54,940 nt of DNA, filler included, from Jimgerdemannia flammicorona (GCA_003990765.1; 3 parts of 3 records of this genome joined end to end with filler, not necessarily neighbours in it), one strand, 5' to 3'. Counted from the whole stretch's first letter, positions 1 to 36,391 are shown. Notes: generated by a model not told the origin, from the letters alone. A program made the numbers and translations.

Positions 1-862
1 AAAAAAAGAGAGAAATAATATATTGTTTTTGTCTAAAACAGTTTAAATATTAGTAAAAAGTGTCAGTTTTATTATTAGAAAAGATATTTATTATTAAATA
101 TTTTAATTTATAATAAAGAAGTTATTTATAAATTGAAAAAATAATATAATATTAAATTATTTAAATATATTAATTAAAATTAACTTATTTAAATTATTAT
201 ACTAAAAATAAAAAAAAATTGTAATATAATTAAAATATTTTATATTTATATTAATTTTAATAAATAATTATATTATTAAATAATAAGCTTAATTTGATAA
301 TAAATCTTTTAATTAATATAATATATCTCTTAATCTATAGTATAAATAAATATATCTACAAAAATATTTAATATAAAATATCACACTTTATACTATATAT
401 CATATATAATTAATACTTAGTATACTCTTTAATACTATAACTTAAGTATTTTTAATATTTATTTTTAATATATCTATAATTTTGAGATATAATTACTTAT
501 TAGAGAATACAAATTCTATAAGCATAACCTTTAGCTAATTTGAATAGAGAGATCTGATAACATCTATTCTCTGATCTATTTATATATAGTCTTCCTCTTC
601 AATTTCATTATTCTGTTTTACTGTAGAGGTAATAAGTGAATTTTTCCCTCTATAGTTAAGATATGAATAATCTGTTAAAATTTTACTATTAGGAGCAAGA
701 TTTGTTCTACCATGGCAAGGACAACTTACCACTTCTATATTAATTTATCAGATAAACCCATTATAGTTTTCTCAAATATTGACAAAAAAAACTGAATGAC
801 AAACAAAGCTTTGGAAACCTCAGCAGAAATTGTATACTCTTCTAAATAGATATATGCTTGCT

Positions 863-905
<43 letters not shown>

Positions 906-2415
906 ACATGAAATCAGTTATGATAGATAGAGTGGCAGTGTGTCTAGAGACAAGCAGAGTGCAGAATTTGTAGACCTGCACCTGGCAATAGACAACTCCC
1001 AAGCTGCTGAATTGCCAAGTCTATGAAACTGATGAGAAACAAAAAGTAGAAAGGCCCAAAAGTCAATACATATATGTTCTGAGTAGTGATGTGAAGTTTA
1101 GTCAATCCATGAACATCAGGCAAATTATCTACTTTGCCAATTTCATATACTATATATAGATATTCTTTGCCCAAATTTTGAATTATTTGTATACTATTAT
1201 CCTAAAGAAGATAGTGTATCATTTCTAATATCTTATAATTTTAAAGAAAAAAAGATAGCAAGATAAAAGAAATACCTATCTCATTCTTATAGAGAAATTT
1301 AACAGCTTTTTGATAATTTGCTAAAATGTCATTTTCCAGTATAGCTAATATATTGAAAATCATCCTGTATCTCTTACTATTCTTCTGTTGAGATGATCTG
1401 ACTCTTGCTGAAAAGATTAACTATGATATCTTTCTTCCTAAGCATTAACTCTATAATATTGAGTCTAGTATAATATATAATCATTTAGGTCTGCTTTATT
1501 TAACTTTCAATTATATTCATATTTATTAGCCTTCAAATTATTACAATAGCTGCATTATGTTCAGTAATATAAAATATATATATATATATATATATATATG
1601 GAAATTTAATATCTTTCCAAAATCTTTTAACCTCTGAATTATCCTGAGAATGAAAATAACTAAGTGTGAATATTGTATAGATAGTACTAGAAATTGAGAA
1701 TATAAGCAACAAATATATATTTACCAAATTAAGTTCAAATGGTTTGATATATTTCTTAATATACTGTGGTATATCCATAGATTGGATATACCTAAGATAT
1801 TGCTTATAGGTTTGGTATAGGGATGTCTTCTCACTAAGGTTGATTCTTCTTTCACTCTGGATGAATTTCAGAAATTTGATACAGATCCACTTATGCCAGA
1901 GTATGTTTATGAAAATTGGAGATATATCAGAGATTTCAATGGTGTCATCACTCATTTTGCTACATTTGAGTGAAGTTTAACAAGAGAAATAGAGGAAGAG
2001 TATGCTCACCTAGTAGACTCTCATAGCTCTTTGAATCCACTGAAATACCTATTACTATACTTATAGGAAATATAAGGCAGGGTAGAGATATGTGTTGAGT
2101 ATAAATCTCAGTAGCATATAGTGATATATGGAATGTTTATTTATGAAGAAAAAGGTGATATCACCAAATTCTACCTAATAGAGAGGCTACATATATGTAA
2201 ATTTGCCTGCATGTGACTATAGGTTAAGGGATATGTAATAGTAGATTTATTTTTAGTCTTAATAGATTCTATCTTGATATATTATATAAAATATTTCTCA
2301 AATAATAATTACTCTTATTAATAGTAACTATTTATAATATTTCAACTTCTATATAGATTAATTTTTAATTTCAATAGATTTTAATATTAATACTTTATAT
2401 AGAGAATTTATTAGT

Positions 2416-2495
2416 AACACCTTTCTCTAGTAATATTCAAGTGATACAAACTTCTAATAACTCTCAAGATATCATTTTTGGAAAAAAGATACTAG
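2416..2495 (+). mobile_element. 5' UTR of the L1/Tx1-like LINE, separated from its body by the gypsy insertion
   Basis: Aligns by eye to 54603-54683 of the young copy (...gaaaaaagatactag vs ...gagaaaagctactag). Confidence 0.75.
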
Positions 2496-4030
2496 TGTCA
2501 CATAGTGGTCACTAAGTCCTTTAAATATGCCAGATTCTCTTCAAGGTGTATCTCTTAGACTAACTCAAGTTTATTATAAGCAAGTTCTTATTGGAGTGCC
2601 TTCCCAAGGTCTTATAGTCCTCAAACTTCTTATCTTTAAACTGTCTTGTTATCTCTTAGATTACTTGTAAGGAAGTGTGTATATTATACTAAGAAGAACT
2701 AACTTTATTTCAGAGAAAATAAGAGGGGTATTTATACAAAATATAATTCAATAGTTGCTAAGATATAAGGCTAAATATAAATTACAATAACTAAAACTAC
2801 TAAGTTCCAGGGCTGGCACTGATAGTTGTACAGGTTCAGAATACTGATATTATTTAGTGTCATATCAAAATACTAGTGCTGGAACAATTTTGCATCACCT
2901 CAGAATACTAGTGCCAGCATTATCCAGTGTTACATGAGAATACTGGTGCTGGTATTATTCAGTGTAATAAAGAACTTAGAGCAGAAAGTTCAGGACCATG
3001 GGAGCTTCATCCTTGTCATTATCATCACTGAAGGAGATGAGATCCATGAACTTGTTATGTAGGTTGCATATTTCACATACTTCATATGGGATGACGTCAT
3101 CACTGATGACATCATCACATTCAGCAGGGAAATCAGAAACAAGATCTGGAGCTCTCCAGTCTATGAGGTTCTCTTCTACAAAATAGAGAACAAATGTGGG
3201 GTCTTGGGGAGATCTAACCTGGATATTTGAGCCTTGAAATACTGAGATCAATCCTTACAGGAATTGGTCTGGGTTGTCCTGAAGGATAGGATGCCAGAAG
3301 TCTTCTACTTCTTTACTGTTGAGGGTGATAGTGGACTGGGCTTCTGTAGCCACCCTGGCTTCTAGTATATTGATATGATGGGATGATAGATCTCTGAAGT
3401 CTGAGGCTCTGACATACTCCAAGTTGGGGATTGACCATGGTACATGTCTGAAGATCTGATAGATCTTCTTAGCTGTCCTCATTTTGCATATATCTATGGG
3501 AGTGACATCTTGTAGCTCTTGGGTGCTGGCCTGTGGGAACTCCCAGCAGAGGAGGTTTCCTATTTCATACTCCTGCTATATTTGGAGGCATTTGGTAGCA
3601 ATGGTGATCTTTGTTTCTATTTCATGGTAGTAGAGAATGAAGTGATAAGGGTCTGCAGTACCCAGGTGGACACTAGGAGTCCTTCTTGAGCAGGTCCCCA
3701 TGGCTCTTCTGATGTCTTGGAACATCCTTTCCTCGACTGAGATACCTTGGTGATTCCTTGACCTTGAGATTTGGTGGGCAGCAGATATTTCATTTGTGGT
3801 AAGTCTTTGAGCTATTTTGGGATTGGTGGTTCTTATTGGTTACTGCTACTGCAGTTCCTTGATCCTTCTTTTATATTCTTCAGGATACTTGTACTGTGGT
3901 CACAATGACTCACAGTTGGTCATCATTGCTCATCTCATATGCTATATGATCTTCTTGTGCTCTGATCTGGTGGCTTACAAGGAAAGGCTGTCTCCTGTAC
4001 TGATGTCATCATTCTGGAGTCACTATTACA
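2496..4030 (-). repeat. 3' LTR of gypsy element 1
   Basis: TGTCACATAG...TATTACA, colinear with 9692-11226 (offset 7196); differences are mostly transitions. Confidence 0.95.
2976..3815 (-). pseudogene. ~280-codon LTR-embedded ORF of unknown function (3' LTR copy)
   Basis: ORF-track fragments 3255-3482 and 2976-3251 are one frame that extends upstream (MFQDIRR...YEIGNLL...TAKKIYQIFRHVPWSIPNL...LSSHHI). Stops are transition-derived and differ between the two LTRs; presumed start is ATA (from ATG) at 3815. Confidence 0.75.
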
Positions 4031-4040
4031 TCTTCCTCCT
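4031..4040 (-). other. Polypurine tract of gypsy element 1
   Basis: Minus strand reads AGGAGGAAGA immediately before the 3' LTR. Confidence 0.85.
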
Positions 4041-4399
4041 GAATAAGGATCTTCCTGAGCATCCTTATTCATTGGTCCAGTCCTGAAAAATTTTCTGATC
4101 CCATAACCTCTGGCAAGGGGTTGAAAAGTGGTATTTATGGGCTAGCATCTTCTCTTTGTATTTTGGCATAATGGTGAAGGGTTGCTCCCTTCATATAGAG
4201 CAAGGGCCTGATTCTGATCTTAACCAATCAGTTGATGGTTTGAACTCCTCTGACTTCGAAAGTCTCATAGATGAGTAGTTGCCAGTGCCATATCCCTTAG
4301 AGAATGGTCCAGACAGATAGCCTGCTGGTCATGGGACATGCTGTTATGATTCATGGACTAGAACCTCATGGGCGGTCATTATATTTTGCTTCTCTTATA

Positions 4400-7300
4400 T
4401 AGGTTCATGGTACTTCTTGAGTCTGTTCCTATGTACTGTGGTAGGTAGTATGGTCCCTGAGATTTTTCTAAGCCAGAAGATAGTTCCCTTGATATCTTGC
4501 ACATAGAAGGGTCCTTCCCATTTGGGCTCCAGTTTTCGTAACCATGAGGCTTCTACTATATTTTGATATAGTAGAACCTTTTCTCCAATCCGGATGGGTT
4601 CTAGGGCCTTGTGATTCTTTTCTATATTCTTCTTTGTCAGCGCTTGTGACTTGGTGATATAATCTTCAGCCTTCTTCCTGATTTGGTGTAGTCTCCGGAT
4701 TTCTGTATCAACCTATCTCCAAGTTAGGTCTAGATTTGTGGCTGAGGTTCTATCAGAATCTTCTTCTCTGAAGAGCAGCTCCCTTGGGGTAAAGTGTGTG
4801 CTCTGTGACCATATGTCTCATAGGACAGAGAGGGCAGTTGGGAGGTAGTTATCCCAATTCTTATATATTTCCGAGATCTTCACTAGGATGTTCTTGAGGG
4901 TCTTGTTGGTTCTCTCTGCCTGTCCATTTCCTTGAGGGTGATATGCGGTGGTCTTGATGTGCTGGATCTTGTATTTCTAATACATTATCTCATGGAATCC
5001 ATTGACAAATTTCATTCCATGGTCTGTTGTGATTTACTTTGGTGTCTTGTAGTAGCAGATGATTTCTCGGTGTAGGAAGTCGGTTATAGAGAGGGCATTG
5101 GCTTCTTGTAATGCTCCTGCCTCTATCCATTTGGTGAAGAGGTCTACAATAACTATAATATAGCAGTTTCCTGATAGTGTTACTAGTAGTAGTCCAATGA
5201 TAATTCTTTATGACCCAGGTGCCTGGTCTTACTGATCTTATTTCTGTTTTTGGCACTTGTCACACCCTTTGACAAATTGGCACAGGTCTTCTTCTATCTT
5301 GGACCACCACATGGTTCTTCTTATCTTGTCATATGTATTGGTTCCTCCTAAGTATCCTTGCTTGTATACTTCCTTCATTACTTGATACTTCTTATGTTCA
5401 GGTATTACTAGCTTTTCTCCTTTTCTAAGTATAGTGTTGTCTAATTCAAACTATTTCCAAGTCCGGTTAATGATAGTGGTGTCCAGGGTTCGAGGTGGTT
5501 GGGCATCTTCTACTGCCTAAGATAGCTGATTAATCCATAGTATAGCTCCTTATTCATGTTGAATAGTCTTGATGGGGGTGTTTCGGGGTATCTTTGAGAG
5601 TGCATCGGTATTGGTATTGGTCTTTCCTGAGCAGTACTTGATAGTACAGTCATACTCTTACAGTCTGTAGATCCATCTGGCATATATTCCTTTGGGGTTC
5701 AGAGTGTGGAATAGCCAGGCAAGAGCAGAATGGTCTATTTGAATAGTGAAGTATTTCCTAGCTAGGTAGTAGTGAAACTTGTCTACTGCCTAGACTACTG
5801 CTAAGCATTCAAGCTTATATGACTCATAGTTCTGTTCTGCTCCACAGGTATCTCAGCTTGCATAGGAGATGACATATTCATGTCCATCTTTCTTCTGAGC
5901 TAGGACTGCTCCAAGTCCTATAGCACTCGCATCTGTCTGCAGGATGAATTCTAGGTTCCAGTCTGGTCTTCTGAGGATAGATACTTGGGTCAACCTGATC
6001 TTGAGTTCATTGAAGGTTTCTTGGTACTCCTTGGTCTATTTGAATTTGGTCTCCTTCTTCAGTAGCTCATAGATAGGTACTGCAATGTTAGAGTATCCTT
6101 TGATGAATCTTCTGTAGTAGCTGGCCAGTCCAAGGAAGGTGTGGACTTCTGTGGTTGTTCTGGATCTCAGGTAGACTGCAATAGCCTTGATCTTCATGGG
6201 GTCTGTATGGATTCCAGTCTGGTTGATGAGGTATCCTAGATAGGCAATTTCTTGAGCTGCAAACTTGCATTTCTTGGGCTTGATGTAGAGGCCATGCTCC
6301 TTAAGCCTCTTGAGGGCTAGCTGTATGTGATTGACATGTTCCTGTATAGTATTGCTGAAGATGATCACATCATCAATATAGACAAAGAGTCATTTTCCAA
6401 TCTCATTGCTGAAGACTCTGTTCATCATTTGCTGGAAACTTACTGGGGCATTGTACATTCCAAATGGCATTCGCAGATAGATATAGGTGGCATCAGGTGT
6501 GATGAAGGCTGATTTCCCACTGGCATCTTGAGTGAGACCAATCTGATGGAAGCCTGAGAACAGATCCAAGGTGGTATAGTATTTGGCTTTGCTTCCAAGG
6601 GTGATAAGGATTTCTTGAATATTCGGCAAGAGCTGCCTATCCTTCTTGGTGATGGCATTGAGCTTCCTGTAGTCAATACAGAGTCTTGGTGCAAACTCTC
6701 CAGGCTTGCTTCCTTTCTTCAGGGCTAGGACAATGGGTGAGGCCCAGGAGTTGATAGCTTGCTTAATGATTCCAGCTTCTTCCATTTACTTGAGTTCTGC
6801 TTGTAGCCACTCTCTGTAGGCAGGTGGTATGGGTCTGGCTTTCTGATAGATGGGCATGGTATCACCGGTGTCAACTTTGTGATAGTACTTAGGCTCTTGA
6901 TTGTGGATATCCCTAAAGTCTGTAGCAAGTACTCCTTTGTTCTGATGCAGGATCTTGAGAAGTTGTTTCTCCAGAGGAAAGTTTTCTCTAATGGTATATG
7001 TGTACTTGTTCTGGTCCTTGTCTTTCTTGTACTCAAGTTCAGCAATCTTGGTGGTAGCATAGGCTCCTCTTCCAGTAGATCCAAAGCCTTGTTCTCCTCT
7101 CTTGGTCTTGATGAGTTCGATGGCTTCTATGATCTTGGGCTTCTTGATTTCGTGGATCAGCATCTGGCCAATCCTGTCATACTTCTTGACTTCGAAGGGG
7201 GTGGTGTGGTTGTGATTTCTAACTATAAGGAAGATCTCACTAGTGTAATCAGGGTCAATTACTCCTCCTTCAACTGAGATTTCACTTTTGGCCAAACTGC

Positions 7301-9634
7301 TTCTGGTCTTGATAATTCTGGCATAGTTTTCTGGTAACTTGACTCTAATTCCAGTGCCAAGTAGGGTGGTGGTCTGTGGTTCGAGGGTAGCATCTTGAAT
7401 ACTGACAAGGTCCATTCCTATGGCTCCTTCAGTCTTGTATTCTGGGATCTTGGCTTCAGGGTGAGACTTCTTGACTTTGAGAGTAATGTCTGATTCTTGT
7501 TCCTCCTCATCATCACTGTCAGCTTGAAGCTCTGGGGGCTGGTCATCTTCTTTGGCTTTCCTTTTTGTTTTGGTAGCTTCTTGCTCATGTTTCTGTTGGT
7601 GGATTTTTCTGACTTCACTGATACAGGACCAGCAGTCATTCAGGTGTTCGGAGCAGTACATTCTAGTACCATGGGGGCATCTTCCTTGAGGGGCATAGCC
7701 ATCAATGATCTTATTGTACCACTGCTCATCTGTGAGTTTAGGTATCTTGTTCTTATTCTTGTTCACCGAGTGCATGAAGACTTCTGTGTCTTCATCTCTT
7801 TCCTCTATGTCTGGTAGGACTCCTTTGTGGACATTGATAGAGACTTATACCTTTCTTTCTCTGTAGTTGATCTGTATCTTCTAGGCATTAAGGTCAATAA
7901 TGGCCTTGACCTTGTGAAGCCATTGGTTGCCAATGAGAATGTCATAGTTGGTGGTACTTGTAACAATCACATCTACTGAGATGGTAGCTCCTCCTATCTT
8001 AATGGGACTTCTCGGATTTTGCCAAGGAGAATAGCTCATGTACCATCTGCTGTGACATAGACCATCTTGATGGACTCTTCAATGTCCCACCCTAGGCAGT
8101 CAATTGCCTTCATGCTCATGAGACATCCTCCAGCACTAGTATCAATGATGGCATCAAAGATATAGTCTTCAATCTGACAGGGGGTATAGGCTGATGTCTT
8201 GTGCTAGTCTTCAGATTCTTCACCTGAGTTCTCAGATTCTTCCTGTGCATTGTGAGCTTCTACAATCTTGTACTCTTGATTCTTGGCAGTAGTTGCAAGT
8301 CCTACTCTCAACTGCTGTCTGAAGGCAGGGACTTTAGCTAGCTGTTCAAAAGTAGCATTAACCTTCTGTTCCTTGAGGTCCTTGTAGATGTCATATTGGT
8401 GGATCTTGGTCTTGTGCAGCTTCTGTTTCTTCTTGCTTTCGCTTTCTCCTGAGACTGGAGTAGTGCCTTCTATGATTTGGCAGGCAGCTTCATCTAACTC
8501 CATATCTTGATCAATCTCCTTGGGTTGGGTCTTACTTTGAATAGTGACAGCTGGGGTCTTCTTTGGTCTTCCAACTGGTTTGCTGTTGCTCTTCTTGTCA
8601 TAGGGCTTGGACCAGGTTCTGGTACCTTCGATAGCAAAGTAGAATTCGAGCTCCTCATAGTATTCTTCATCATCAGTGTCACCGATCTCCTCAATGACTA
8701 CTGCATTGGTTTGTTCTCTGGTTCTGCTAGCATTGCTTGGTTGGGCTTTGCATCTTGTTTTGGTTATGCAACTCTTTGCATAGTGGCCTTCTTCTCTACA
8801 TCTGAAGCATGTGATATTGCATTCTTCTGTAGCAGCTGCAAATCTCTGCACTAGTCTCTTGTTAGTGCTTTGGACCTCTCTAACAACATCACCAAGATGT
8901 GCAGTCATCTTGGTGAACTGCTTGGCGAGTTCTTCCACTGGATCAGCTTTGGCTATCTTGGGGGTAGGTGGGGTTGGTTGTCTGTTTATGACTGTGGTAG
9001 GTAAGATACTAGTTGACTTTGATGGCTCTATCTTGATGCCAGTTATTTTCTCCATTGAGTGTTCGGCAGGGTGTCTGGCAGTCCAATATTTCTGTGCAAA
9101 GACCACTTTCTGATCAAGGGTCAGTGTAGCCGAAGTAGACCAGATTGCTAGGGCAATTTCAGGGTGAACTCCTTTGAGGAAGATTGAATCCACTATTTGT
9201 TCCTTGAGGTAGTCATCATAGCCAGCCAAGACAATCTGATGGCAAATTCAGATATAGAATGAGTTAGAATCTTCACTAAGTCCCTGGCAGATAGTATTGA
9301 GTTGATCCTTGAGAGCTTGCTTGATCTCTTCAGTATAATATGTTATTCTGAGGAAGACCTTCATGTTGGTAAGTTTGGCTGCATCAGCATCAGTAATAGT
9401 GGCTGCATTGAACTTATCTCTAACAGGTCCTCTGAGGCTGACTGATAGAAGGGCCAATTGAGTATCTACACCAAGGGCTTGTATAGTGGCAAATTATTCA
9501 AAGTCTTCAATGAAGGTTAGGATTGACTCTACAGTAGTATATCCATAGAATGTGGGGGGATGTATTTCCATCTTATCTTGAATTCTTGCAGGGGTGACTC
9601 TTGTAGTCAGGGTAGTTGTTGTGGGGGTTGTTCA
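4400..9634 (-). pseudogene. gag-pol polyprotein with stops and frameshifts (ends approximate)
   Basis: Gag PPTFYG; zinc knuckle CFRCREEGHYAKSC; protease AIIDTSAGG (~8150); dUTPase; RT LCIDYRKLN, LDLFSGFHQI, MPFG, YIDD (~6375); RNase H LQTDASAIGLGAVL; integrase with GPF motif (~4510); no chromodomain seen. Confidence 0.93.
7071..7485 (-). other. dUTPase domain between protease and RT
   Basis: Trimeric dUTPase motifs GMDL, RSSLA, GVIDPDY, RIGQML, RGEQGFGSTG within ORF 6786-7775. Confidence 0.95.
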
Positions 9635-9670
9635 TTTTTCAGCTTGAAAGTGAGGGATTTGTCTTGAATC

Positions 9671-9688
9671 ACTAGCCAATGGGCACCA
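9671..9688 (-). other. Primer-binding-site-like motif
   Basis: Minus strand reads TGGTGCCCATTGGCTAGT 3 nt after the 5' LTR; the TGG start complements tRNA CCA; cognate tRNA not determined. Confidence 0.7.
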
Positions 9689-9691
9689 AGT

Positions 9692-11226
9692 TGTCACATA
9701 GTGGTCACTGAGTCCTTCAAATATATCAGATTCTCTTCAAGATATATCTCTTTGACTAACTCAAGTTTGTTATAAGCAAGTTCTTATTGGAGTACCTTCT
9801 CAAGGTCTTATAGTCCTCAAACTTCTTATCTTTAAACTGTCTTGTTATCTCTTAGATTGCTTGCAAGGAAGTGTATATATTGTACTGAGAAGAACTAACT
9901 TTATTTCAGAGAAAATAAGAGAGGTATTTATACAAAATATAATTTAATGGTTGCTATGATATAAGGCTAAATATAAATTCCAATAACTAAAACTACTAAG
10001 TTCCAGGGCTGGCACTGATAGTTGTACAGATTCAGAATACTGGTATTATTTAGTATCACATCAAAATACCGGTGCTGGAACAATTTTGCATCACCTCAGA
10101 ATACCAGTGCTGGCATTATCCAGTGTTACATGAGAATACCGGTGCTGGTATTATTTAGTGTAATAAAGAACTTAGAGCAGAAATTTCAGGACCATGGGAG
10201 CTTCATCCTCATCATCATCATCACTGAAGGAGATGAGATCTGTGAACTTGTCATGTAGGTCGCACATTTCGCATACTTTATATGGGATGATGTCATTGCT
10301 GATGACATCATCACATTCAGCAGGGAAATCAGGAACAAGATCTGGAGCTCTCCAGTCTATGAGGTTCTCTTCCACAAAATAGAGAACAAATGTAGAGTCT
10401 TGGGGAGGTCTAATCTGGATGCTTGGGCCTTAAAATACTGAGATCAATCTTTGCAGGAATTGGTCTGGGTTGTCCTGAAGGATAGGATGCCAGAAGTCTT
10501 CTACTTCTTCACTATTGAGGGTGATAGTGGACTGGGCTTCTGTAGCCACTCTGGCTTCTAGTGCATTGATATGGTAGGATGATAGGTCTCTGAAGTCTGA
10601 GACTCTGACATACTCCAAGTTAGAGATTGATTATGGTACATGTCTGAAGATCTGATGGATCTTCTTAGCTGTCCTTATTTCACATATATCCATGGGAGTG
10701 GCATCTTGTAGCTCTTGGGTACTGGCCTGTGGGAACTTCCAGTAGAGGAGGTTTCCTATTTTGTACTCCTGTCACATTTGGAGGCATTCAGTAGTAATGG
10801 TGATCCTTGTTTCCATTTCATGGCAGTAGAGAATGAAGTAATAAGAGTCTGCAGTACCCAGGTGGACACTAGGAGTCCTTCTTGAGCAGGTCCCCATAGC
10901 TCTTCTGATGTCTTGGAACATCCTTTCCTTGACCGAGATACCTTGGTGATTTCTTGACCTTGAGGTTTGGCAGGCAGCAGGTATTTCATTTGTGGTAAGT
11001 CTTTGAGCTATTTTGGGATTGGTGGTTCTTATTAGTTACTGCTACTGCAGTTTCTTGATCCTTCTTTTATATTCTTCAGGATACTTATACTATGGTCACA
11101 ATGACTCACAGTGAGTCATCATTGCTCATCTCATATGCTATATGATCTTCTTGTACTCCAATCTGGTGGCTTGCAAGAAAAGGCTGTCTCCTGTACTGAT
11201 GTCATCATTCTGGGGTCACCATTACA
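9692..11226 (-). repeat. 5' LTR of gypsy element 1
   Basis: TGTCACATAG...CATTACA, with a PBS-like site next to it on the minus strand. Confidence 0.95.
10172..11011 (-). pseudogene. LTR-embedded ORF (5' LTR copy)
   Basis: Same frame at offset 7196; fragments 10430-10618 and 10172-10375. Confidence 0.75.
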
Positions 11227-14200
11227 CTAGTAACATAGCAACTAATAAGCATTCTAAGATATATATTAGGCAGAGTGACCCTAGTATATTTAACTAGCAG
11301 TATATAGAGAGAAGTCATAGCTTAGGGGAAAGTATGTGAGACTTACTGGCTGGAGGGTATAAAAGAAGAAGAGGTAGTGCAGGGGGGTAGAGAACTGAGA
11401 GGATGAGCTTTGTAGACAAGGTGAAGGAGAGTCATCTAGTAACTAGACTAGAGAACTAGCTGAGAAAGAGAAAGGAGATAGTGAGGACTGCTGGATCTGG
11501 TAAAGTGGTTCATAGTGATAAGAGCAGTAGAGTAGAGAGAGTAGGGACTAGAGAGAGTGAGACTGATAATTTGGAAAAAAAATCCAGATATAATGATTGA
11601 TAGTGGACCTGCATAGGGGGTGGATATAAGGTCTGCAGATCTGGTAGATAGTGTAATGGAACTAGTGACAACCCTATTACTCAAGAAATTGAGGTCTGAG
11701 TTTGTCATCATACTATACTTCTATGGTCTAATAGTGACTACAAGAATGATTCTGAAACTTCTGGCCCAGAAGGTAAAGGATACAGTCTTGGTGGAGTTCT
11801 TAAAGGGTCTGGAAGAGATGGAGGTTAGATTCAAGAAGAAGAATGTATTGTTGGCAGTAATGGAAAAGGGGATGATAGTAGGAGGAGTAGTGATCTCCAT
11901 GGCCAGATGCTTATACTGAGACCTCTGAGTAGTACAGTTGATGGTGATGGATGTTCTGATAGTATCAAAGGAGATGACCAGAAGGCTGATTGTAGAGGCC
12001 ATCAAGGAGTATAAGAATATTATAGATGTTGTATTTCAGGTCTAAGAAGGCATGGAGTTCAGGATGGGTAATGTAGATATTAGAGTACAGCTAATAGGTA
12101 AGAAGAATACAAGGAGATCATGGAACTCATCAGCAGTACTTAAATGGAAACTAGTAGAGTACAAAGTATCAAGAGTAAAGAGGATACAAGAGGAAGAAGA
12201 GAACTTATTAGAAGCATTGGAATATTTGGCTGATACTATTGAGAGGAGAAGGCTGGCCTGAAAGAAGTTTGAGACTAAGACAGTGATAGAGATTATAAAT
12301 GGCAAGAAGGTATAGCTGAATTGAGTGGCCTGGAAGAGGACACAGAGGAGGCATATTCAGAAGGATCTGCTGGTAAAGCTGGGTGGGAGGGTAGCAGGGG
12401 GGACTATTACTAAAGATGAGAGATTAAGGGTTAGTATCTGGGCTAGGGAGAAGAAAGTAGCTCTGGTAGTAGCCCAGAGAGAGAGAAGTGGTGCTGGGCT
12501 AAGTGTTATCATGGAGAATGCAGAGATAGTTGAAGGGAAGTATCCTTAGTATAGAGTGTCAGAAGGGGCTACTGGCAAGGATAAGCTATAAAATATACTG
12601 GAGGAAGATTGAGATGAGTTGGCAAGGAGGAATACTGAGGGAAGGCAGGCAGAAAGGGGGAAAATAGTAGCCCAAAGAGTTGAGAAGGTAGTGGATGAGG
12701 AGAAATAACTATGGAAAATACTTGAGAACATGGTAGCTAAAGAGCTGAGGAGAGAGGACTTTAGGATTTTGAGTGAGAGATACTGAGCTAAAATCTTACA
12801 TAGTGAGGAGGTGCTAAGGAAAATTCAAGAGAGACTGAGAAGTATCAAGTAGATGATTCCAGAGAGAAGATACTTTGGGTAATTGCAAATAACTAGGCTG
12901 CTTATATGTGAGAACTGAGGAAAGGGCTGATGAAGTGACAGGTGGTATGTGAGGAGTACCAGATAGAGATGGAGGCTGTAGATAGTATAGATTATTAGGA
13001 GATCTTGGTAATACTGAATACTCAGCAGGAGGAGGCAGATGAGCTTAAGGCAGAGAGGAACTTGGATCTTACAGATGAAGAAATGAGCATAAAATTATAG
13101 AGTGGGTGCTTCTTCTCAAAAAACATTATTCAATATAAATAGTATAACTAGGATCTTCTCTTTGAATATCAATAGACTGAGGGGTGTGATGAGATATCAG
13201 AATATCTTTAGTTGGTTGAAGGAGCAAGATATAGATCTTTTCTTATTATAGAACATATGTTATGATGTAGACTTAGACTTACTGGATTAGATAAGAGAAT
13301 AAGGAGGTATAGTAGTATAGTAAGATCAGGTGGGCATTCTGGTTAGGAAGGAAAAGGAGAATATTGGGGATATTGGATATTGGGAGAGCAGACTGATATA
13401 GAGAGTGTGGAAGAGGCCCGACTGGAGTCCCCTGACTATTGAGTCATACTATTACCCAGCAGAAAGGGGGAAATGAGTGGATTGGATTCAGAGATTGTAA
13501 GAGACCAATATTTTGGCAGCTGTGGAGCTTGACTGTTTGAAGAGTAACTTTAATATAATATATAATAGTAGGATGAACAGGACTAGTAGAGAGAGGGAAT
13601 TAACAGGCAGGAGTAGAGAGATGGAAGATTGGAAGAAAATTGAGAGACTGAGTTCTTTAGTAGATACTGGGCAACTTGGGTGAGAAGATTGTCAGATCTA
13701 TACTTATTAGATGACAGGGCTGAGATCAAGGATTAACTGGGTATTGATGGCTGAGTGCTGTGGTGCAGATATCTGGAGTGAGATTGAGATAGTCTGGTGT
13801 CCTTGATCAGACCACTGGGGCTTACTGGATAGAGAGAGGTTTGGGGGTAGTAGAGATGGGCCTGGATATTAGTATCTGAATACCTCACTACTGGGGGATT
13901 GTATCTTGTAGGGCAAATGAGCGATAGAAGTTAGTATTAGAATTATTAGCTAGAGGGCACAGGGGTTGGAGATTGGGGATCATTGGAGGCAGTTAAAATC
14001 TGATACTCAGTAGTACTGGGGGAAGGCCAGGAGAGAGAGAGGAGTCCAGTAGAGATAGCATGTTAGATGAGGATGGAGAAACTACTAGAGAGGTGGACAG
14101 GGTCTTTGGTAGACTGTGAGGAAGGAGACTGGAGGATTCAAAGGATCTAGTAGGAGGTGGCCAAACTAAAGGGACTGCTTAGACAGGAGGAGAAATTACA

Positions 14201-15455
14201 GGTGAAGAGGTTGGTAACTCAGCTAAGATAGCAAGATTTGGAGGAGGGAGAGTAGCCTACTAAATTTCTGTTGAGGCTACTGTGGACAAGGAGAACAAAA
14301 TAGCAGTGAGAAGGAATATTGGATGAAGTAGGAGATATGATGACAGAGACACCAGAGATTATGAGCCTACTGCAGTCTTGCTGGAGACAGCTATAGAGTA
14401 AGAAGGAGGGGCTCTGGGTATTGAACAGCAGTTAGAGGATTAGTACTCAGATCTGGCTATAGGTCTGAGTGAACTTGAAGCCCTAGTGTAAAGAGAGGAG
14501 GTGTGTTAGATCTTAGCAACAATAAGTATAGGAATGGCCCCTAAGAAGGATGAGTTGTCTTGAGATTTTTGGAAGAAGATAGCTAGTATTGAGATCATGC
14601 TAGAGGAGATAGTATGGATATGTGATGAAGTTATTAGCTCAGGGATCTGAATTGGGGGTCAGTGCCTGAGACTTGTAGCTATTGTATAAGAATAAGAGAA
14701 GAAGGGAAAATTAGAAGAACTAGAGACTGATCATGCTTCTGAATATAGATTACAAGTTAGTGATAAAGATTTTAGTAGCCAAGCTGCAAGAGGTAGCTCA
14801 GAAGATACTTGGGGCTGAGCAGAGGGACTTTATCAGTAGTCACTTGATTTGAGATAGGACAGCATGAGTTCATAGTATTATTGAGGGTGCTTGAGCAGCC
14901 AGGGTCAATGGTTGACTAGTCTTTCTGGATTAAGAGAAGATATATAATAGAGTTTGGTATATATGGCTGAAGGGAATGTTGAAATAAATGAGAGTCTCTC
15001 TAGAGTTTAGGAGATCATTGATTGGTCTATTGGAAGAGAGTCAGGTAACTATTATAGTGAATAGGTACAGGGAAGAGTCCTTCCCCCTAGACAGAGGAGT
15101 ACTGCAAGGAGATCTATTATTACTAATTCTCTATACCCTCTCACTAGAGCTCTTGTTAGATAGGATATAGTACAGAGTTGAGAGTTTGAATATTTTGGGA
15201 GTAAACTGAAATATTGGGGCCTTTGCTAATAACATAGTGGTCAGGCTGAGCTCTGTAGAGGATGTGGCAATACTGAAGAGTATAGTGGAATAATATAAGA
15301 GGTACTCAGATACTAGACTCAACTGGTATAAGTGTGAGACTCTGATCCTAGATAGAGGAATAGTTAGTGGTAATGTGATCAGAATAGTGGTCCTAGCTGG
15401 TAAAGTAGTCTGTTACTTGGGTATTTATTTTTCAGTATATGGTTCCCTGCTATTC
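11227..15455 (+). mobile_element. Heavily mutated L1/Tx1-like LINE (ORF1 relic, then APE-RT ORF2 from ~13140), truncated by chromovirus insertion
   Basis: Degenerate motifs IFSLNINRLRG, SRINWVL, SDH, GPGY*YLNTSLL, EGE*PTKFL, LLNIDYKL, FLD*EKIYNRV, RGVLQGDLL, FANN (FADD), YLGIYF; 5' part aligns to 54680-54940. Confidence 0.9.
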
Positions 15456-17519
15456 TGTAAGAGGGTTACTTTTTAGGGTGACCATTATGTAGTTCTGGAA
15501 AGGTTTTCTGGATATTCTGGATGTTCTGGAAGACCGTTTTCTTATGGTCAAGATCAATTTCATATGGAGTACGTCCTCTACACTTATTGATTTCTAGATC
15601 AGGTTGACGTCTCAACCAAAGTCCTTTTCTGGACTAGTTCTGGATGTTTAGGATTTTCCGTATTTCAGGAAGTTCAAGAAACTAAGACCAGCTTAGTTGA
15701 ATTGGTGTATCGCTGCAGACAATACCCAATTAGGAAATTTCGTGATGGGGTTAGGAGTAGGACCTAACAGAGAGCGGATTTACTTAAGAGTGATTTGTGG
15801 GTTATTAAATAGGTTTATTTGCTATTCATGATATTGCTATACTAGGAGTATTTGTGTGAAGGGGTATTGTGGGGAAGTGCTCAGGAGTTGTGTTCGGATT
15901 GTTCAAGTCTGTTCGAGTCTGAGATTCTGAGGTCTGGGGGAGGGGGTATTTATACTAGTGAGGGGCTATCTGGACTAGGCTAGATATGGATGTAGCACTA
16001 AGTGCTTTGCTGAGTCAGAATGCAGTCATGTAGTACAAGTGTGATCTGACATGTCAAGGGATCATCTGACTGCTGAGTCAGTTCACAGTCACATCGTACA
16101 AGGCTAATCTAAGTATACTATGTCTGCTAGACTATTTATAGGTTTAGGCACTATCTGGGTAGTCTTTGATGACATTACCATCGATTGCATCATCTCTGAT
16201 GAAGTAGTTATCTAGGAATAATGGTTCGTAGATTACTTCTCCTTGTTGGCTGAGGTAGTAATACATTGGGACTTCATCTCCGTCCCACAGGATAGCATCA
16301 TCTGTTTCGTATGCTGGATAAGGTGTTGGTGGATGAAGGATGGGTGTACTGTCTTCACTTTCATCGGATTCGCTGTCTGCGTACCTTCTATAGGTTATAG
16401 CACTATGAGTTGCAGGGTTATAGTATGCTGGCGGCTGTGGTTCATGTTGCTCGTACTCAGGTAGTAGAGTGGTTGGTTCGATCTCGAGGGGTACAGGTTG
16501 TGTTCTCCGGTCTCTTCATTGTAATTGAAGTAATCGGGGGTGAACATGGGTTGGTATTCGTGCCAGTGGTCATTGTCCCAATAAGTCTCGTATGCAGTTA
16601 TGAACTGTTGTAAGTTCATCGGCAAGGTTGGCAGAGTGATCAGGGTTGGCAGAGATCCTTAGCTAGAGGTCATGTCGGCGTCAGAGGGATCATTGTCTTC
16701 TGCTTCATCTTTGTCGAAGTGGATTATATTGTAGACGTCCTTCATAGCATATCCAACTTGAGGCATTTGTAGGATATGGTCATCAGGGTGCGGGAAGGTT
16801 CTGTCTGTGGTTTCGACATACTCGAGGTACTTGTGGTTGATTTCTTATATCATGTCATCGATTTGGCCGTAGGACAGGGTAGCAACCATTTTGCTGGTAG
16901 TAACTCGGAGGCGGGGAATAAAGGTGTTGTACTCATAGAAGAGTTCTTGATGTTTGCGGGCGATGAGCTTCTGGTGTTGAGACATCTGGGTAATGTCTGT
17001 ATCATGGTGGTGTTTGACCATGTCATCCAGGAGGCAGCCGATCTGGTAGTAACTTGAGATTTGTCCAATTCGGTGGGCCTTGCTAAGCATGTTCAGGGCA
17101 TTCCATTGGGCTTCCACGAAGTAGAGGGGTGCTAGGCTATGGATATTCATGAGGAGCAGAGGGGGTGTGGCTCGGTTGACAATGGCATTCCAAATGTCAG
17201 CGCGGATGTGGTTGTAGATCTCAGTAGTCATGTTTGTGTGTTTGGAAGTTGTGGTTGTTGTTTGTTTTGGTTCTCTGATTCGACGCGTTTTGGTGCTCAG
17301 TATATATGCATTTGGTCCTGATTGGTAAGATTCCGTTTGTGTAGATCTTGTATTCCGTGACTTCGTATTGACTCAGCTTTGTGCACTATGACTTCGGTTT
17401 GACTCAGCTTTGTGGTCAAGCAGGTGATTTCCAGATTTGTTCAGAGGTCACGTGTGATTTCAGTGGCTTGTTCAGAGGGTGAGATGTAATTTCGGTGGCT
17501 TGGAGGTTGTGCACTTACA
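15456..17519 (-). repeat. 3' LTR (2064 bp) of the chromovirus
   Basis: Inverted termini TGTAAG...CTTACA; PPT adjacent; LINE RT frame stops abruptly at 15455; partner LTR not in the window. Confidence 0.8.
16659..17231 (-). pseudogene. ~190-codon LTR-embedded ORF, one internal TAA
   Basis: ORF 16845-17231 continues in frame after TAA (probably CAA) to an acidic tail IIHFDKDEAEDND; shares motifs with the gypsy-1 LTR ORF. Confidence 0.75.
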
Positions 17520-17579
17520 ACTCTCCCCTTCTTAGCTTTCGATGTCCTCATTGGGGCCTTCTAGTTTGTTCTAGTGTTG

Positions 17580-17882
17580 TTATACCATTTGGGAGGTCAA
17601 AAGTCTGGTAAGATCCATTTTCTCAGAAAGTGGCATGCTCATAGTACAGTTGCCTAACGCGTTAGATTCACATGTTAAAGAGTCGTGTGTTCGATGCCGT
17701 GCGCTGGAAGTGATTCTGATGTCATTCACTGCTGGAGAATTTCCTCTAAGGAATCTTCTTAAATATCTATGCCTTGTTTCCCACCAGTGGTATAGGGAGA
17801 ATAGGCTTGCTTTCAGTTTTGCTATTTTTTCCAGAGGGTCGGTATTCTTGTCTTGTTTTGCTGAGTTCTTGATTTGGTTCAT
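17580..17882 (-). CDS. Extra 100-aa ORF between pol and PPT, unknown function
   Basis: Intact ATG-to-stop ORF, in frame with pol after the pol TAG. Confidence 0.35.
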   Translation of the reverse strand: MNQIKNSAKQDKNTDPLEKIAKLKASLFSLYHWWETRHRYLRRFLRGNSPAVNDIRITSSARHRTHDSLTCESNALGNCTMSMPLSEKMDLTRLLTSQMV

Positions 17883-18259
17883 GATAGTTATAATGTTCAG
17901 GAGGGTAATATATAGTATGTATGGATAGGTGGAGAGTATTTGGTTCTAGTTGTTCAAGGAATCATATTCCTGAACTAGGTTGGTAGCATTCTGGAGGTTG
18001 GTCTTGGGTTCCCAGGTTGCATTGTGGATTGGGTAACCTTTCCATTTGACAAGGTACTCGGGATGGTTCTTGTTGCCATGTTTGTTGAGGATTTATTCAA
18101 CTTTGTATTCTTCTTGGTCATTAATAATGACAGATGCAGGTGGTTTGGTGGTCCGATTTGGAAATAGCTCATCATCATTGTCATTGTATCGCTTTAGACG
18201 TTGAACATTAAAGACTGGGTGAATCTTAATGGTGTCTGGTAGCACCAGTTTGTAGGAGG

Positions 18260-18359
18260 NNNNNNNNNNNNNNNNNNNNNNNNNNNNNNNNNNNNNNNNN
18301 NNNTTAATTAATTAANNNNNNNNNNNNNNNNNNNNNNNNNNNNNNNNNNNNNNNNNNNN
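18260..18359. other. Artificial contig linker
   Basis: N-run with central TTAATTAATTAA (stops in six frames), identical to 36606-36705. Confidence 0.97.
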
Positions 18360-18475
18360 CATCCCCCCCCCCTACTCCTTTTCGACGAAAAACCACTTTA
18401 TCAAACACCATCGCCACCCACCCACCACTCTACTCACAGATCTCCTCCACCAGACGGTGGCGATGCCCACCTTGC

Positions 18476-20775
18476 AGTCTCCACCAGTTGAGCACCTCCG
18501 TGCCCTCCAGCAGGACCACGCAGTCGCTGGCGAGGTAAATGGTAAGTTCGTCTATTGATGGTAGCTCTTTCACTGACGGCTCCCTCTTCCTCTTTCTGCC
18601 AAAGTAAATGTGGGACAGGAGGGATCCCTCGGCATATTCATCTGGACTTCGGCCAGAACCTTGTGGTGGTGCATAGTTTTTCCGGTACACTTCAATTATG
18701 GCCTGCTTGGTTCTCTCAATGAAGTACTGCTCCCAGCCCTGATCTTTATGGTATTGTAGCTTTAAGCGTAGGTCCAGCACTGTTTGAAGAAAAGGAGAGT
18801 GAGTTTTTGTGGGGTTTCCACTGTTTTGGAAGGGGCAACAGCCACATGCCAACATTGACATACCTGTACTGATTGAGTATACGGCAGTATCTGTTTGAGT
18901 GTAGTATTTTCTAAGCTTGCTTAGAGCAACCACCATGGCATCTCTCTGATCTGGGCTTAACCGTAAATCACCGCAACCCTCCAACCTGTCCTCGAGCTTG
19001 TTCTCTAGCTGGTCAATCAGAAGGTTATATACCGATATCGCAGAGCTTATTGTCAGGGTCGTTTGTTTGACTATATCCTTCGTACAATCGTCGAAACACT
19101 GGCAGTTATATGTGGTGAGGTGCGGAGGCAGACAAAACGAGTGTGGAGCCAGGGCAACCACCACTTACTTCCAAAACTCTGATAACATTCCTAAGTATGT
19201 CCCACTCGCTTTCACCTAGAGCCTCGGCCCATATTTCCTTGTTAGCAGCCATCGTTGAATCTATTGGCTTTTTTTTTTTTTAAAATAAATCTTTCATTAT
19301 CCGAAACAGTTGCTTCAGCCGACCGAAGAAAAAAAGAATGCATATGACAGCAAACTCCAGCACACACTGGATCATTGCAAATGTTGAGTTCCAACACATA
19401 CAGACATCCAATATAAGCTCTTTCAGGGCTAAACTGATTGCCCTATCCTGTGCAGTGAATTTGTCTCATCTTTGTGGGGATGATCAGACTGACACAACCA
19501 GTTTGTATAGCTTGGAAATTATACTCAGGGCCCCTCCTCTCTCGGATGTTTTGTCTATGTGCGTAGATAGTCCTGAATAGTGAGGTTCAGTACGTGGGCC
19601 TGGCATCGCACACAGCAGCTTTCTGAACTGAAGGCCATGTTTTCTTGTTTGAGGCTGGCTGCTAAACCTTGGAAAAATGTTGAGTTGTTTGTGGCATTGT
19701 CCATCGTAATGACCAAAATCTGTACTTGAAATATTTGGTTGACAAATTTATGTGAAATAAGTAACCAATAAAATCTGGTTTGGTTTAGGACCTCCCTCAA
19801 AATACCGACCTGATGGCAAGCCCCCCTATTTTACCTTGGTGATGATCCCAAGCTCCCGGATACAACTAATAAAAGCATCTGCGATGTTGTCTCCAGAATG
19901 AGGGCCAGCAAGTTTGATGAAGTCAAGAGTGAGAGATATAAGCTGCCAATCGAGGTCAATCCAATGACTGGTAATGCCCAGAAATGAAATTGCATTGGGG
20001 GATGTCCATGTGTCGATCGTAAACGAAATTTTGCCTGCCGAATTCTGCTTATTGAATGTGAGGTTAAATTGGTGAGCTCTCTTGTATAATTCAGCTTACA
20101 AAGGTCATGGTGCTGCCCTTATTTTACCTGAAGTGTTTGGCGGAGATTGTCATGCTCCTTCCTATAGGCCTCCAGGACATCTTTGTGAATAGTATCAGTA
20201 CTTAGCAAATATAAATCATGCTTGAGGAGGCCAAAGATGCTATGCAATTGATCACTCTCGATGGTTGTGAATGGCTGGTCTGCATACACAATCTAGCGAA
20301 TGAGCCGATTTCGAAATTCTGCCGAAGAGTATGGCTAAAATTTTTGATTAAATGGCATTGTTGGTACAGAAATGGTCAGGCAATTGGATAAACGTACCCA
20401 CCATAGCTTGGATGTCGATTTTATTTGTCTCCATGTTCTTTTTGATTTTGTCAGAGTGCTTGTCTTTTATGTGTCGATTCATGTTCGAAGTTGTACCCCT
20501 AAGCATTTTGAACTTCTGGCTGGTGCAGTTCATGGGGGTGGATGATACAATATCATGTATGTGTCAAACAATATCATGTGTGTGTCAAAACAAAGTGTCA
20601 ATAGGTGCGTCTTAATTTTTTACCTGCAATAATTACAAACAACATCATCTCCTATCTTAGAACAATGTTGCCAGATTTTGGAGCGAGGATTGCGTGGAAG
20701 GTGTGGAACTATCAGGGATGTTTGACTTGAAGCATCATTGGTACTGTGAACTGTTGAAGACTAATCTGTCGACAT
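18476..20775 (-). pseudogene. Intron-containing hAT transposase with BED finger, in-frame stops
   Basis: RSKIWQH..VVCNYC / GTTSNMNRHIKDKH (BED); ISFTIDTWTS..FLGITSHWID; GPHSGDNI; ITMDNATNN; RCQAHVLNL; WNST; LDLRLK; ELTIYL..VLNWW; several GT-AG introns. Confidence 0.92.
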
Positions 20776-20887
20776 GTGTGTTTGCGTGTTTGTATGTACA
20801 TATGTATGTGTGTGTGTGTATGCATGTGTGTATATATGTGTGTGTGTGTTGTATTGTGGATGCGTCCAGCATATGAGTCATGTGGAG

Positions 20888-21437
20888 GATTTGGATTGCA
20901 GGATTTGGTTGAAGGATTCGGATGAGGATTCAGATTGAAGGATTCGAATTGGAGGATTCGAATTGGAGGATTCGAATTGGAGGATTGGAATTGAGTGATT
21001 CGGATTGAGTGATTTGGATTGAGTAATTCGGATTGAGTGATTTGGATAGAGTGGTCCGGATTGGAGTGGTTTGGATGGGTGATTCAGATGGGTGATTTGG
21101 ATGGGGCAATTCAGATGGGGCGATTCAGATTGAGTGATTCGGATTGAGTGATTTGGATTGAGTAATTCGGATTGAGTGATTTGGATAGAGTGGTCCGGAT
21201 TGGAGTGGTTTGGATGGGTGATTCAGATGGGTGATTTGGATGGGGCAATTCAGATGGGGCGATTCAGATTGAGTGATTCGGATTGAGTGATTCGGATTGG
21301 GGTGGTTCGGATGGGTGATTCGGATGGGGTGATTCAGATGGGGCGATTCAGATTAAATCCAAGTTGATCCAGATGGCTTCGGATTTGAGAATCGAATCAA
21401 ACCATCATGTGACGAATCGAATTCGGATTTGATTCAA
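20888..21437. repeat. hAT subterminal repeats (GATTCGGAT-like units, higher-order 139-bp duplication)
   Basis: Dozens of 12-13-bp units; block starts at 20993, 21132 and 21271. Confidence 0.9.
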
Positions 21438-21458
21438 ATTGACTCGTTCGGAGCACTA

Positions 21459-26948: not shown

Positions 26949-27268
26949 GTATCTCATATCAATCATTTGGTATTTGGGCATTAATATTATTCTCATAGTT
27001 GGTACCAGATATTTGTGTATTATATTTAGTCTCTCTCTTCTTTGCTTTTTGTATTTATTATTCTTATGGCCATGACAAAATGATATATCCAGTCTATCTA
27101 TAGAGTAGTTACCTCTCTGGTCTTTTGTTTCTTTCTTCTTAGTTAATATTTACTTCCCTGGTCTCTTTTTGCTTTACTTACCTCAGAAGTCTTTACTGTT
27201 TATTGCTCTGATATATCTTATCTTCTCTACAATTAATAAATCCTTACTTGAAGCCTAACACTAACTAA
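26949..27268 (+). mobile_element. Copy C: 3' UTR-only fragment
   Basis: Colinear with the last ~320 bp of copies A and B; ends GCCTAACACTAACTAA. Confidence 0.9.
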
Positions 27269-27459
27269 GCCACTCATGTGATTTTCCCATTTAGCTAGAC
27301 TTAGCTTTATGACCTAATTAGCTAAGCCTCTTATTAGGTATAAATATTCCCTTTTATATTATTTTTTCATTGTATAAATAATGGTCATGTGACCTGCATT
27401 TTGCAATTTCAAATAAATAAATAAATACATCTCTATCTATTTCTGCAATATCAGCCACC

Positions 27460-27511
<52 letters not shown>

Positions 27512-35546: not shown

Positions 35547-35577
<31 letters not shown>

Positions 35578-36300: not shown

Positions 36301-36391
36301 AAATCAGCAATATAGTAAAAATTGGTAAAGAAATATATATAAAGAATAAAATTTCATAAAAAGAGACAAAATGATAACAGACAAAATCATA

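Follow-up and report, generated by a model that had tools for sequence, protein, structure and literature searches.

We have found two decayed open reading frames (ORFs), here called ORF A and ORF B, in a 54,940-nucleotide window of DNA from Jimgerdemannia flammicorona (GCA_003990765.1); the window is the whole stretch that was analysed. ORF A lies inside both long terminal repeats (LTRs) of a complete Ty3/gypsy retrotransposon that carries a dUTPase (element 1), and ORF B lies downstream of pol in a truncated chromovirus (element 2). We think it rather probable that the two ORFs belong, as decayed copies, to a single family of retrotransposon accessory genes not described before, borne by the LTR and provided with its own promoter. 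Coordinates of the features are collected in Table 1.

Linkers of the form N44-TTAATTAATTAA-N44 (six-frame stop linkers) occur at 18260-18359 and 36606-36705. The window thus consists of three joined contigs (1-18259, 18360-36605 and 36706-54940), and adjacency across the gaps is meaningless.

Table 1. Features of the window, in positions of the whole stretch.
Feature	Position	Strand	Evidence
Element 1, complete Ty3/gypsy LTR retrotransposon, mutated by repeat-induced point mutation (RIP)	2496..11226	-	LTR pair, target-site duplication, primer-binding site, purine tract, Pfam domains
Element 1, 5' LTR, 1535 bp	9692..11226	-	self-BLAST, TG..CA ends
Element 1, 3' LTR, 1535 bp	2496..4030	-	self-BLAST, TG..CA ends
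ORF A, 5' LTR copy, ~271 codons; stops at codons 80, 127 and 194 of the 10172-11011 frame	10172..10984	-	tblastn, P0005 residues 1-271 cover 10984-10175
ORF A, 3' LTR copy; stops at codons 80 and 187 of the 2976-3815 frame	2976..3788	-	tblastn, P0005 residues 1-271 cover 3788-2979
TATAAAA box, LTR position 156, 87 nt upstream of ORF A start (3' LTR counterpart 3869-3875)	11065..11071	-	motif
Two TGA[CG]TCA sites upstream of the ORF A TATA box, 5' LTR copy	11102..11118	-	motif
Second TATA box GTATAAATACC and AATAAA 27 nt later (3' LTR 2704-2736); putative genomic-RNA promoter and poly(A) signal	9900..9932	-	motif
ORF B, ~360 codons; ATG 17231, TAA 16845-16847, TAA 16659-16661, frameshift/deletion near 16490, final stop 16144-16146	16144..17231	-	phmmer relatives, colinear P0012, tblastn
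ORF B N-terminal domain, homologous to ORF A (supported)	16848..17231	-	HMMER, phmmer, BLASTP, hhalign
Element 2 pol end, SH3_Tf2-1 and chromodomain, cut by contig end 18259	17946..18259	-	Pfam
Putative 3' LTR of the chromovirus, ~2.3 kb, both boundaries approximate	15456..17728	-	downstream of pol stop 17946-17948; contig depth drop 15144-15674
TATATA, 75 nt upstream of ORF B ATG	17301..17306	-	motif
TGAGTCA sites upstream of ORF B	starting at 17406 and 17375	-	motif
GTATAAATACC TATA box (15943-15955) and AATAAA (15814-15819), downstream of ORF B	15814..15955	-	motif
Dor1/COG8-like	39079-41337	-	
Neugrin-like	41971-42462		
Chromate transporter, two ORF pieces	42810-44584		
F-box/LRR protein	50975-51991		

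The gene inside the LTRs of element 1

Self-comparison of the window revealed a direct repeat, 92.6% identical with 0 indels, whose two copies form the LTR pair of element 1. The LTRs have TG..CA termini and the element is flanked by the target-site duplication CTAG; a primer-binding site (TGGTGCCC) follows the upstream LTR and a purine tract (GGAGGAAGA) precedes the downstream one. Between the LTRs, Pfam domains occur on the minus strand in the order gag zinc knuckle, aspartic protease (PR), dUTPase, reverse transcriptase (RT), RNase H, integrase zinc-binding domain and integrase core, with the dUTPase (E 3.2e-27) placed between PR and RT. The LTR pair, the CTAG duplication, the primer-binding site, the purine tract and the domain order together make element 1 a structurally complete Ty3/gypsy element. 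The first-pass annotation of this DNA, which had described a dUTPase element with LTRs of ~1.5 kb, is borne out by the two 1535-bp LTRs and the dUTPase domain. Element 1 has no detectable chromodomain: the three read-through frames of 4031-4900 gave 0 Chromo matches in Pfam.

The order PR-dUTPase-RT has been described for PosPlaTy3-5 of Postia placenta, and dUTPase-bearing fungal gypsy elements include the PosPlaTy3 families of P. placenta, elements of Phanerochaete and Tmt1 of Tuber (PMC2864245). Element 1 is like PosPlaTy3-5 in that its dUTPase sits between PR and RT; it is unlike PosPlaTy3 and Tmt1 in that the available text on these elements mentions no ORF in an LTR, and a legend there lists 'add. 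ORF' without a position (PMC2864245).

Each LTR of element 1 has one sense frame of 280 codons, with two internal stops in the 2976-3815 copy and three in the 10172-11011 copy; both frames read as they had been reported in the first-pass annotation. The initial codon of ORF A is ATA (noted in the 5' LTR copy) and is ATG in the relatives. At codon 80, where all relatives encode tryptophan, one LTR has TAG and the other has TGA; the other stops stand opposite glutamine or tryptophan codons of the relatives. A homologue search yielded six cluster-level relatives whose frames of 161-271 residues are intact (E from 2.6e-120 to 1.5e-32, 53-80% identity), and a cluster look-up added further members of up to 323 residues. 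All of these relatives are located on metagenome contigs of JGI or ENA, 0.5-2.4 kb long, and are labelled at most as 'hypothetical protein'. A metagenome scan at the DNA level found a single related locus (L001), 1345 bp long, with an intact frame of 323 codons. Related loci were found neither in viral contigs nor in prokaryote genome contigs, and no DNA relative of ORF B was retrieved.

The ratio of nonsynonymous to synonymous substitution rates (dN/dS, Nei-Gojobori) between L001 and the two window copies of ORF A was 0.21 and 0.18, with dS of 1.8-2.1, near saturation; between the element's own two LTR copies it was 0.62. In a blastn comparison of L001 with the LTR of element 1 (LTR-A), similarity was restricted to the ORF and the 18 nt preceding it. 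The ratios of ~0.2 against L001, the higher value between the LTRs and the restriction of DNA similarity to the ORF indicate that the frame of ORF A is under purifying selection among lineages. Judged by this conservation, ORF A is a real gene whose frame has been lost only locally. Since it lies wholly within the LTR, a full element has two copies of it and a solo LTR has one.

The local destruction has a clear signature. The two LTRs of element 1 differ at 113 positions, of which 108 are transitions; 28 of the 50 C/T differences stand before A, and 35 of the 58 G/A differences stand after T. The decay is repeat-induced point mutation of the CpA>TpA type, and all stops in the window copies of ORF A and ORF B except one are traceable to RIP-type C>T or G>A changes. 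The window copies of both ORFs are dead. Such a spectrum would point to an ascomycete, a host different from the one implied by the Glomeromycotina parallel of the first-pass annotation. Two very AT-rich regions of the window (1-3000 and 33000-37000, GC 19-29%) are consistent with heavily RIP-mutated repeats.

ORF B and its N-terminal homology to ORF A

What is present of element 2 is the last ~300 bp of pol and ~2.5 kb of downstream sequence; the remainder is missing because the contig ends at 18259, not for a biological reason. Pfam detects an SH3_Tf2-1 match at 18186-18257(-) and a Chromo domain at 17961-18107(-) (E 3.3e-14). By this chromodomain at the integrase C terminus, element 2 is classified as a chromovirus. 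A tblastn search with its integrase end against element 1 gave nothing at E <= 10. Two different gypsy lineages are therefore present, as had been claimed: one with a dUTPase and no detectable chromodomain, the other ending in a chromodomain.

A distance of 715 nt separates the pol stop of element 2 (17946-17948) from ORF B, which lies downstream of it. When the 190-residue frame from ATG 17231 was compared exhaustively by phmmer with 1.84 billion representatives, four matches were obtained. Two of them are real (E 5.6e-70 and 2.7e-23), namely P0011 and P0012. The other two (E 2e-5 and 1.6e-4) were set aside as unrelated; one is repetitive and the other very long. P0011 (128 residues) is 89% identical to ORF B residues 1-128. 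P0012 (247 residues, 62% identical) corresponds in its first 71 residues to ORF B residues 115-185 and then continues, colinear with the window down to 16150; jointly the two proteins span ORF B end to end. A word-based homologue search found nothing with the RIP-mutated ORF B frame, and with P0012 it found only P0012 itself.

Since P0012 is colinear past 16659, ORF B runs from 17231 to 16147 and has ~360 codons. The first-pass annotation had placed ORF B at 16659-17231(-); the frame and its one internal stop were correct, and the end at 16659 was not. The TAA at 16845-16847 is a glutamine codon in P0012, and at the frameshift near 16490 contigs from soil sequencing runs (described below) carry extra letters. 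By its protein relatives, ORF B too is a real conserved gene.

The similarity of ORF A and ORF B becomes significant when their relatives are included. P0011 and P0016, a member of a divergent ORF A sub-lineage, match in BLASTP with E 8e-7 (25% identity over 110 residues) and in phmmer with 22.5 bits (E 5.5e-9). This phmmer score was reached by 0 of 5000 global shuffles (maximum 10.4) and 0 of 5000 windowed shuffles (maximum 8.8), and the reversed sequence scored -0.8; the comparison with shuffled controls on which the first-pass annotation had made its proposal depend thus ended at 0 of 10,000 composition-preserving shuffles. The HMMER profile of ORF A matches P0011 with 18.0 bits (E 7.2e-8 in one comparison; 0 of 2000 shuffles reach this score, maximum 5.5) and the more heavily RIP-mutated window ORF B with 10.3 bits (E 1.7e-5). 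In hhalign, 17 A sequences against three B sequences gave a score of 29.0 (P 0.003) over 119 colinear columns. The controls were reversed profiles (14.9 and 13.8) and 176 column shuffles, 0 of which reached 29 (mean 15.0, standard deviation 2.8, maximum 27.1); the comparison as run by the tool gave P 0.0021. We also made a scan free of selection, in which the A profile was compared with all 996 six-frame ORF pieces (>=30 residues) of the window; the best non-self match was 16848-17372(-), with E 0.008. The blocks that had been paired by eye (MFQDIR/IYNHIR, YEIGNLL/YQIGCLL and TAKKI..F/IARKH..F) are the same ones that HMMER, BLASTP and hhalign align.

Could the similarity be a product of chance, or of convergence between unrelated helical, acidic orphan proteins whose shared position is a coincidence? 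The identity is only ~25% over 110 residues, the probability given by hhalign is only 10-13%, and no significance is reached when the two window copies are set directly against each other. Such an origin is already largely refuted, and we consider it very improbable: the BLASTP and phmmer values for P0011 and P0016 stand against it, three programs return the same colinear alignment, the less RIP-mutated copy of ORF B outscores the mutated one (18.0 versus 10.3 bits), and the unbiased scan of the window ranks ORF B first.

Several observations nevertheless weigh against the reading of a single family and should be set beside this evidence. Direct BLASTP of window ORF A against window ORF B gave a best E of 0.17, and the match was not colinear. 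The first A alignment compared with the ORF B frame in hhalign gave P 0.058, though the alignment of the first-pass annotation was the one picked. The B profile did not retrieve the A pieces among the window ORF pieces at E <= 1. Members of the A family near the window copy match B weakly in phmmer (E 4e-4, 1.7e-3 and 0.018), so that the link between A and B runs through the P0016 sub-lineage and P0011. The C-terminal halves share a match of 10 columns (P 0.036), and what is demonstrably common to A and B is the N-terminal third only. An intact, full-length single ORF B frame was not seen among the relatives, and P0011 ends at the same codon as the first TAA of the window ORF B (16845-16847), which reflects either RIP of a CAA codon, shared or in parallel, or a stop that is genuine for this sub-lineage.

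On balance, homology of the N-terminal ~110 residues of A and B is supported by the sequence comparisons, with the P0016 sub-lineage as the bridge; the remaining parts appear either diverged beyond recognition or unrelated. The homology proposed in the first-pass annotation accordingly stands for these ~110 residues once relatives are added, and does not stand on the window copies alone or for the tails. The paired 'acidic tail' of ORF B is an internal acidic stretch, because ORF B runs on past 16659 for ~170 residues more. The statement that the DNA has no obvious similarity holds, as all blastn matches between LTR-A and the B region have E >= 0.037.

Both proteins are acidic, with an isoelectric point of ~4.5, and charge is distributed along them in the same way: an N-terminal region of ~120 residues is neutral to slightly basic, whereas the second half carries a net charge of about -25 to -35. 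No Pfam family matched any of the frames or the intact relatives of A and B below E 0.03; a choline kinase match (E 0.035, 13.9 bits versus a cut-off of 29) was rejected as far under threshold. PDB sequences were searched with P0012 and with the profiles of A and B, and none matched at E <= 1. In the ESM Atlas, the A and B entries have poor models (predicted local distance difference test, pLDDT, 0.35 and 0.39), no usable neighbours and feature scores of <=0.83. The AlphaFold2 models of A (pLDDT 34) and of the B N-terminal domain (pLDDT 50) are too poor for a fold search, which belongs with the points against a single family; they place helices in the N-terminal part of both proteins at low confidence, and the rough coincidence of these predicted helices under the alignment is weak at best. 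The family of A and B was absent from named proteomes in the searches run. The resemblance of the conserved pattern to helical proteins abundant in Glomeromycotina, drawn in the first-pass annotation, is not supported; all relatives found are metagenome proteins.

Signals around the two genes and the putative LTR of the chromovirus

The two ORFs are embedded in parallel arrangements of signals. In LTR-A, TGACATCA is at position 23, TGACTCA at 109, TGAGTCA at 119, TATAAAA at 156, the ORF at 243-1055, GTATAAATACC at ~1294-1295 and AATAAA at 1322, with the end of the LTR at 1535. Around ORF B, on the minus strand, TGACATCA is at 17724, the ATG at 17231, the stop at 16144-16146, TATAAAT at 16134-16140 and TGACTCA at 16080 and 16017, in addition to the motifs listed in Table 1. 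L001 has the motif GAATATAAAAG 65 nt before its ATG, in common with the upstream box of LTR-A, and GTATAAATACC after the ORF, with AATAAA ~26 nt further on. LTR-A, L001 and the B region have one and the same 13-mer at the downstream TATA box. Following this parallel layout, each ORF may be read as having its own promoter and using the poly(A) signal of the LTR, with the second TATA box serving the genomic RNA. The TGA[CG]TCA sites are presumably of the bZIP/AP-1-like type. That the promoter elements around A and B are short consensus motifs is one more point on the opposing side. For element 1 the location of ORF A within the LTR is established by the repeat itself; we infer the start of genomic transcription only from the TATA box at LTR position ~1294-1295.

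The first-pass annotation had put ORF B within an LTR as well. A single copy is present and element 2 is cut by the contig end, so this location follows from context; from the anatomy of the region we consider that ORF B probably lies inside the LTR of the chromovirus. Clean ends of such an LTR (LTR-B) were not found: the B region has no convincing purine tract with TG start and no clean CA end. A 17/19 match to the LTR-A terminus at 15232-15250 was rejected as an LTR-B end, since it lies inside the plus-strand RT domain and was judged a chance match.

Contig depth was taken from four sequencing runs, three soil metagenomes from two studies and one run of a coded organism. Contigs of these runs, in thousands of pieces 80-99% alike, cover element 1 and 15144-18300, and there is almost no contig cover over 11427-15143. 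Summed contig depth over 15675-17267 is 2-8 times that of the integrase/chromodomain bin in the four runs (968-2157 versus 277 in run X1), which fits an LTR. According to the tool's own warning such depth cannot rank parts of an element; it is an unreliable guide to LTR membership, and this counts, as do the unlocated boundaries and the single copy of LTR-B, against placing both genes in LTRs.

An unlikely alternative is that the genes are homologous, with the gene inside the LTR in element 1 only, ORF B being an extra 3' ORF between pol and a short LTR. Extra 3' ORFs are common among LTR retrotransposons. The single copy, the cut element and the lack of a clean purine tract/TG start or CA end suit this arrangement, and a short LTR could start near 16140, as TATAAAT (16134-16140) stands right after the ORF B stop and is followed by a second TATAAAT at 15948-15954 and AATAAA at 15814-15819. 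Against a short LTR, the anatomy on either side of ORF B parallels that of LTR-A, where LTR membership is shown, and the 2-8-fold depth over 15675-17267 is as an LTR would give, with the reservation on depth just stated.

Another alternative concerns the origin of the family, which might be a gene of the host or a small mobile unit of its own, captured by LTRs or inserted into them, with no role for the retrotransposon and with free-standing metagenome relatives. All relatives are indeed on short contigs (0.5-2.4 kb), and each ORF has promoter-like and terminator-like signals of its own. L001, however, has the upstream GAATATAAAAG box of LTR-A and also the downstream GTATAAATACC box with AATAAA ~26 nt later, and these shared boxes suggest that L001 is itself an LTR. 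The same orientation and place of the gene relative to pol in two different elements likewise speak against capture, and purifying selection between element lineages is consistent with a gene that is passed on together with its element. We regard capture without a role as improbable, and retain the reading of an accessory gene of the retrotransposons themselves.

The rest of the window contains other elements and genes. Between the two gypsy elements, 11227-15450(+) carries a different retroelement (RVT_1 14712-15348(+), E 1.3e-11). Purines are unusually frequent on its plus strand, with the GC skew rising to +0.54. We take it for a probable non-LTR element that is flanked or interrupted by the gypsy insertions. 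In the second contig, 18360-20500(-) has a series of frameshifted ORFs, e.g. 18433-19164, without a Pfam match; judged by eye, it resembles a hAT-type transposase remnant. A tandem array with a 14-nt period (at least ~14 registers) occupies 20883-21366, directly before another repeat family. The latter includes repeats of ~1.4-1.5 kb at 21460-22933, 25473-26948 and 31025-32402, which are 77-90% identical, and a 3.9-kb unit present twice (22990-26858 and 28580-32400; 74% identical). We read 21460-33060 as an apparent array, tandem or nested, of yet another element; its ORFs gave no Pfam match. The third contig has ordinary eukaryotic genes at 39079-52000, with a GC content of 55-60%.

Possible function, known parallels and significance

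The protein of the proposed family would have a helical N-terminal domain of ~110-150 residues, common to A and B, and a long, strongly acidic C-terminal half of poorly predicted structure that has diverged between the two. In element 2 the gene would occupy the corresponding position after pol, and would most likely be within the LTR there too. Each gene would be served by a separate TATA box, 65-90 nt ahead of its start codon, with TGA[CG]TCA sites further upstream, and the LTR would have a second TATA box, for the genomic RNA, and AATAAA after the gene. The LTR could then form a complete transcription unit in its own right, ~1.1-1.2 kb long and distinct from the genomic RNA, and the separate message would recall that of the sag gene of mouse mammary tumour virus (MMTV) or that from the internal promoter of foamy viruses. 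The product may be a small acidic nuclear factor acting in trans for the element, either boosting LTR transcription or blunting host silencing. We advance a nuclear, trans-acting function with low confidence, by analogy with acidic activation domains and with retroviral accessory genes that lie in U3 or overlap it; the proposal draws on composition and analogy alone, and this too is to be counted against the reading. A wider version of it, which we offer as a doubtful but conceivable one, is that the LTR is a gene cassette made up of bZIP sites, a TATA box, the ORF and a poly(A) signal, expressible from full elements and from solo LTRs, which would move between unrelated Ty3/gypsy lineages by LTR recombination and would encode a trans-activator or a counter-defence against silencing or RIP.

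MMTV sag, a superantigen gene, is located in the U3 part of the LTR, and lentiviral nef and foamy-virus bel/bet overlap U3. ORF A and ORF B resemble sag, and more loosely nef and bel/bet, as sense ORFs downstream of pol, in being placed in what is presumably the U3 part of an LTR (for ORF B, of a probable LTR) and in the expectation of an own message. They differ in that those genes belong to vertebrate retroviruses and these to fungal Ty3/gypsy elements, and in having no Pfam match; comparisons through Pfam and PDB sequences gave no sequence relationship of A or B to Sag, Nef or Bel. A further difference is that the LTR of element 1 contains the whole ORF together with promoter-like and putative poly(A) signals. 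Accessory genes distinguish complex retroviruses from simple retrotransposons. To our knowledge, fungal gypsy elements are generally regarded as having gag and pol only.

Additional ORFs (aORFs) are known in LTR retrotransposons of plants and fungi, e.g. brtn, an antisense gene found in Boty-like elements of Botrytis cinerea (PMC8365987, PMC7264820). Like brtn, ORF A and ORF B are an extra gene of a fungal gypsy element beside gag and pol. Unlike brtn, which is antisense by the title of its description, they are on the pol strand; the available accounts of brtn do not place it in the LTR, where ORF A is found in element 1 (PMC8365987, PMC7264820). In bdelloid rotifers, additional ORFs are common to diverse retroelement types, which is similar to the present case in that the same accessory ORF occurs in unrelated retroelement lineages of one genome (PMC5408684). 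The rotifer ORFs are different from A and B in that they have an animal host and encode different proteins, and the available text mentions no LTR location for them (PMC5408684). Literature searches for phrases placing an ORF in or within an LTR gave, among the matches listed, nothing on LTR-encoded retrotransposon proteins, and a review of plant aORFs does not contain the phrases 'in', 'within' or 'inside the LTR'.

What is new is a retroelement accessory gene embedded in the LTR of a fungal gypsy element and common to two lineages, the latter supported for the N-terminal domain and with the LTR location in the chromovirus proposed from its surroundings. A conserved, selected gene in an LTR would be duplicated at every insertion, and every solo LTR would retain it as a potential gene; the annotation and masking of such LTRs would have to change. 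Its presence in two gypsy lineages implies either an old shared component or exchange of accessory modules between elements. A role of the product in controlling transcription or host silencing would, if real, provide a handle on the expansion of retrotransposons in repeat-rich soil fungi.

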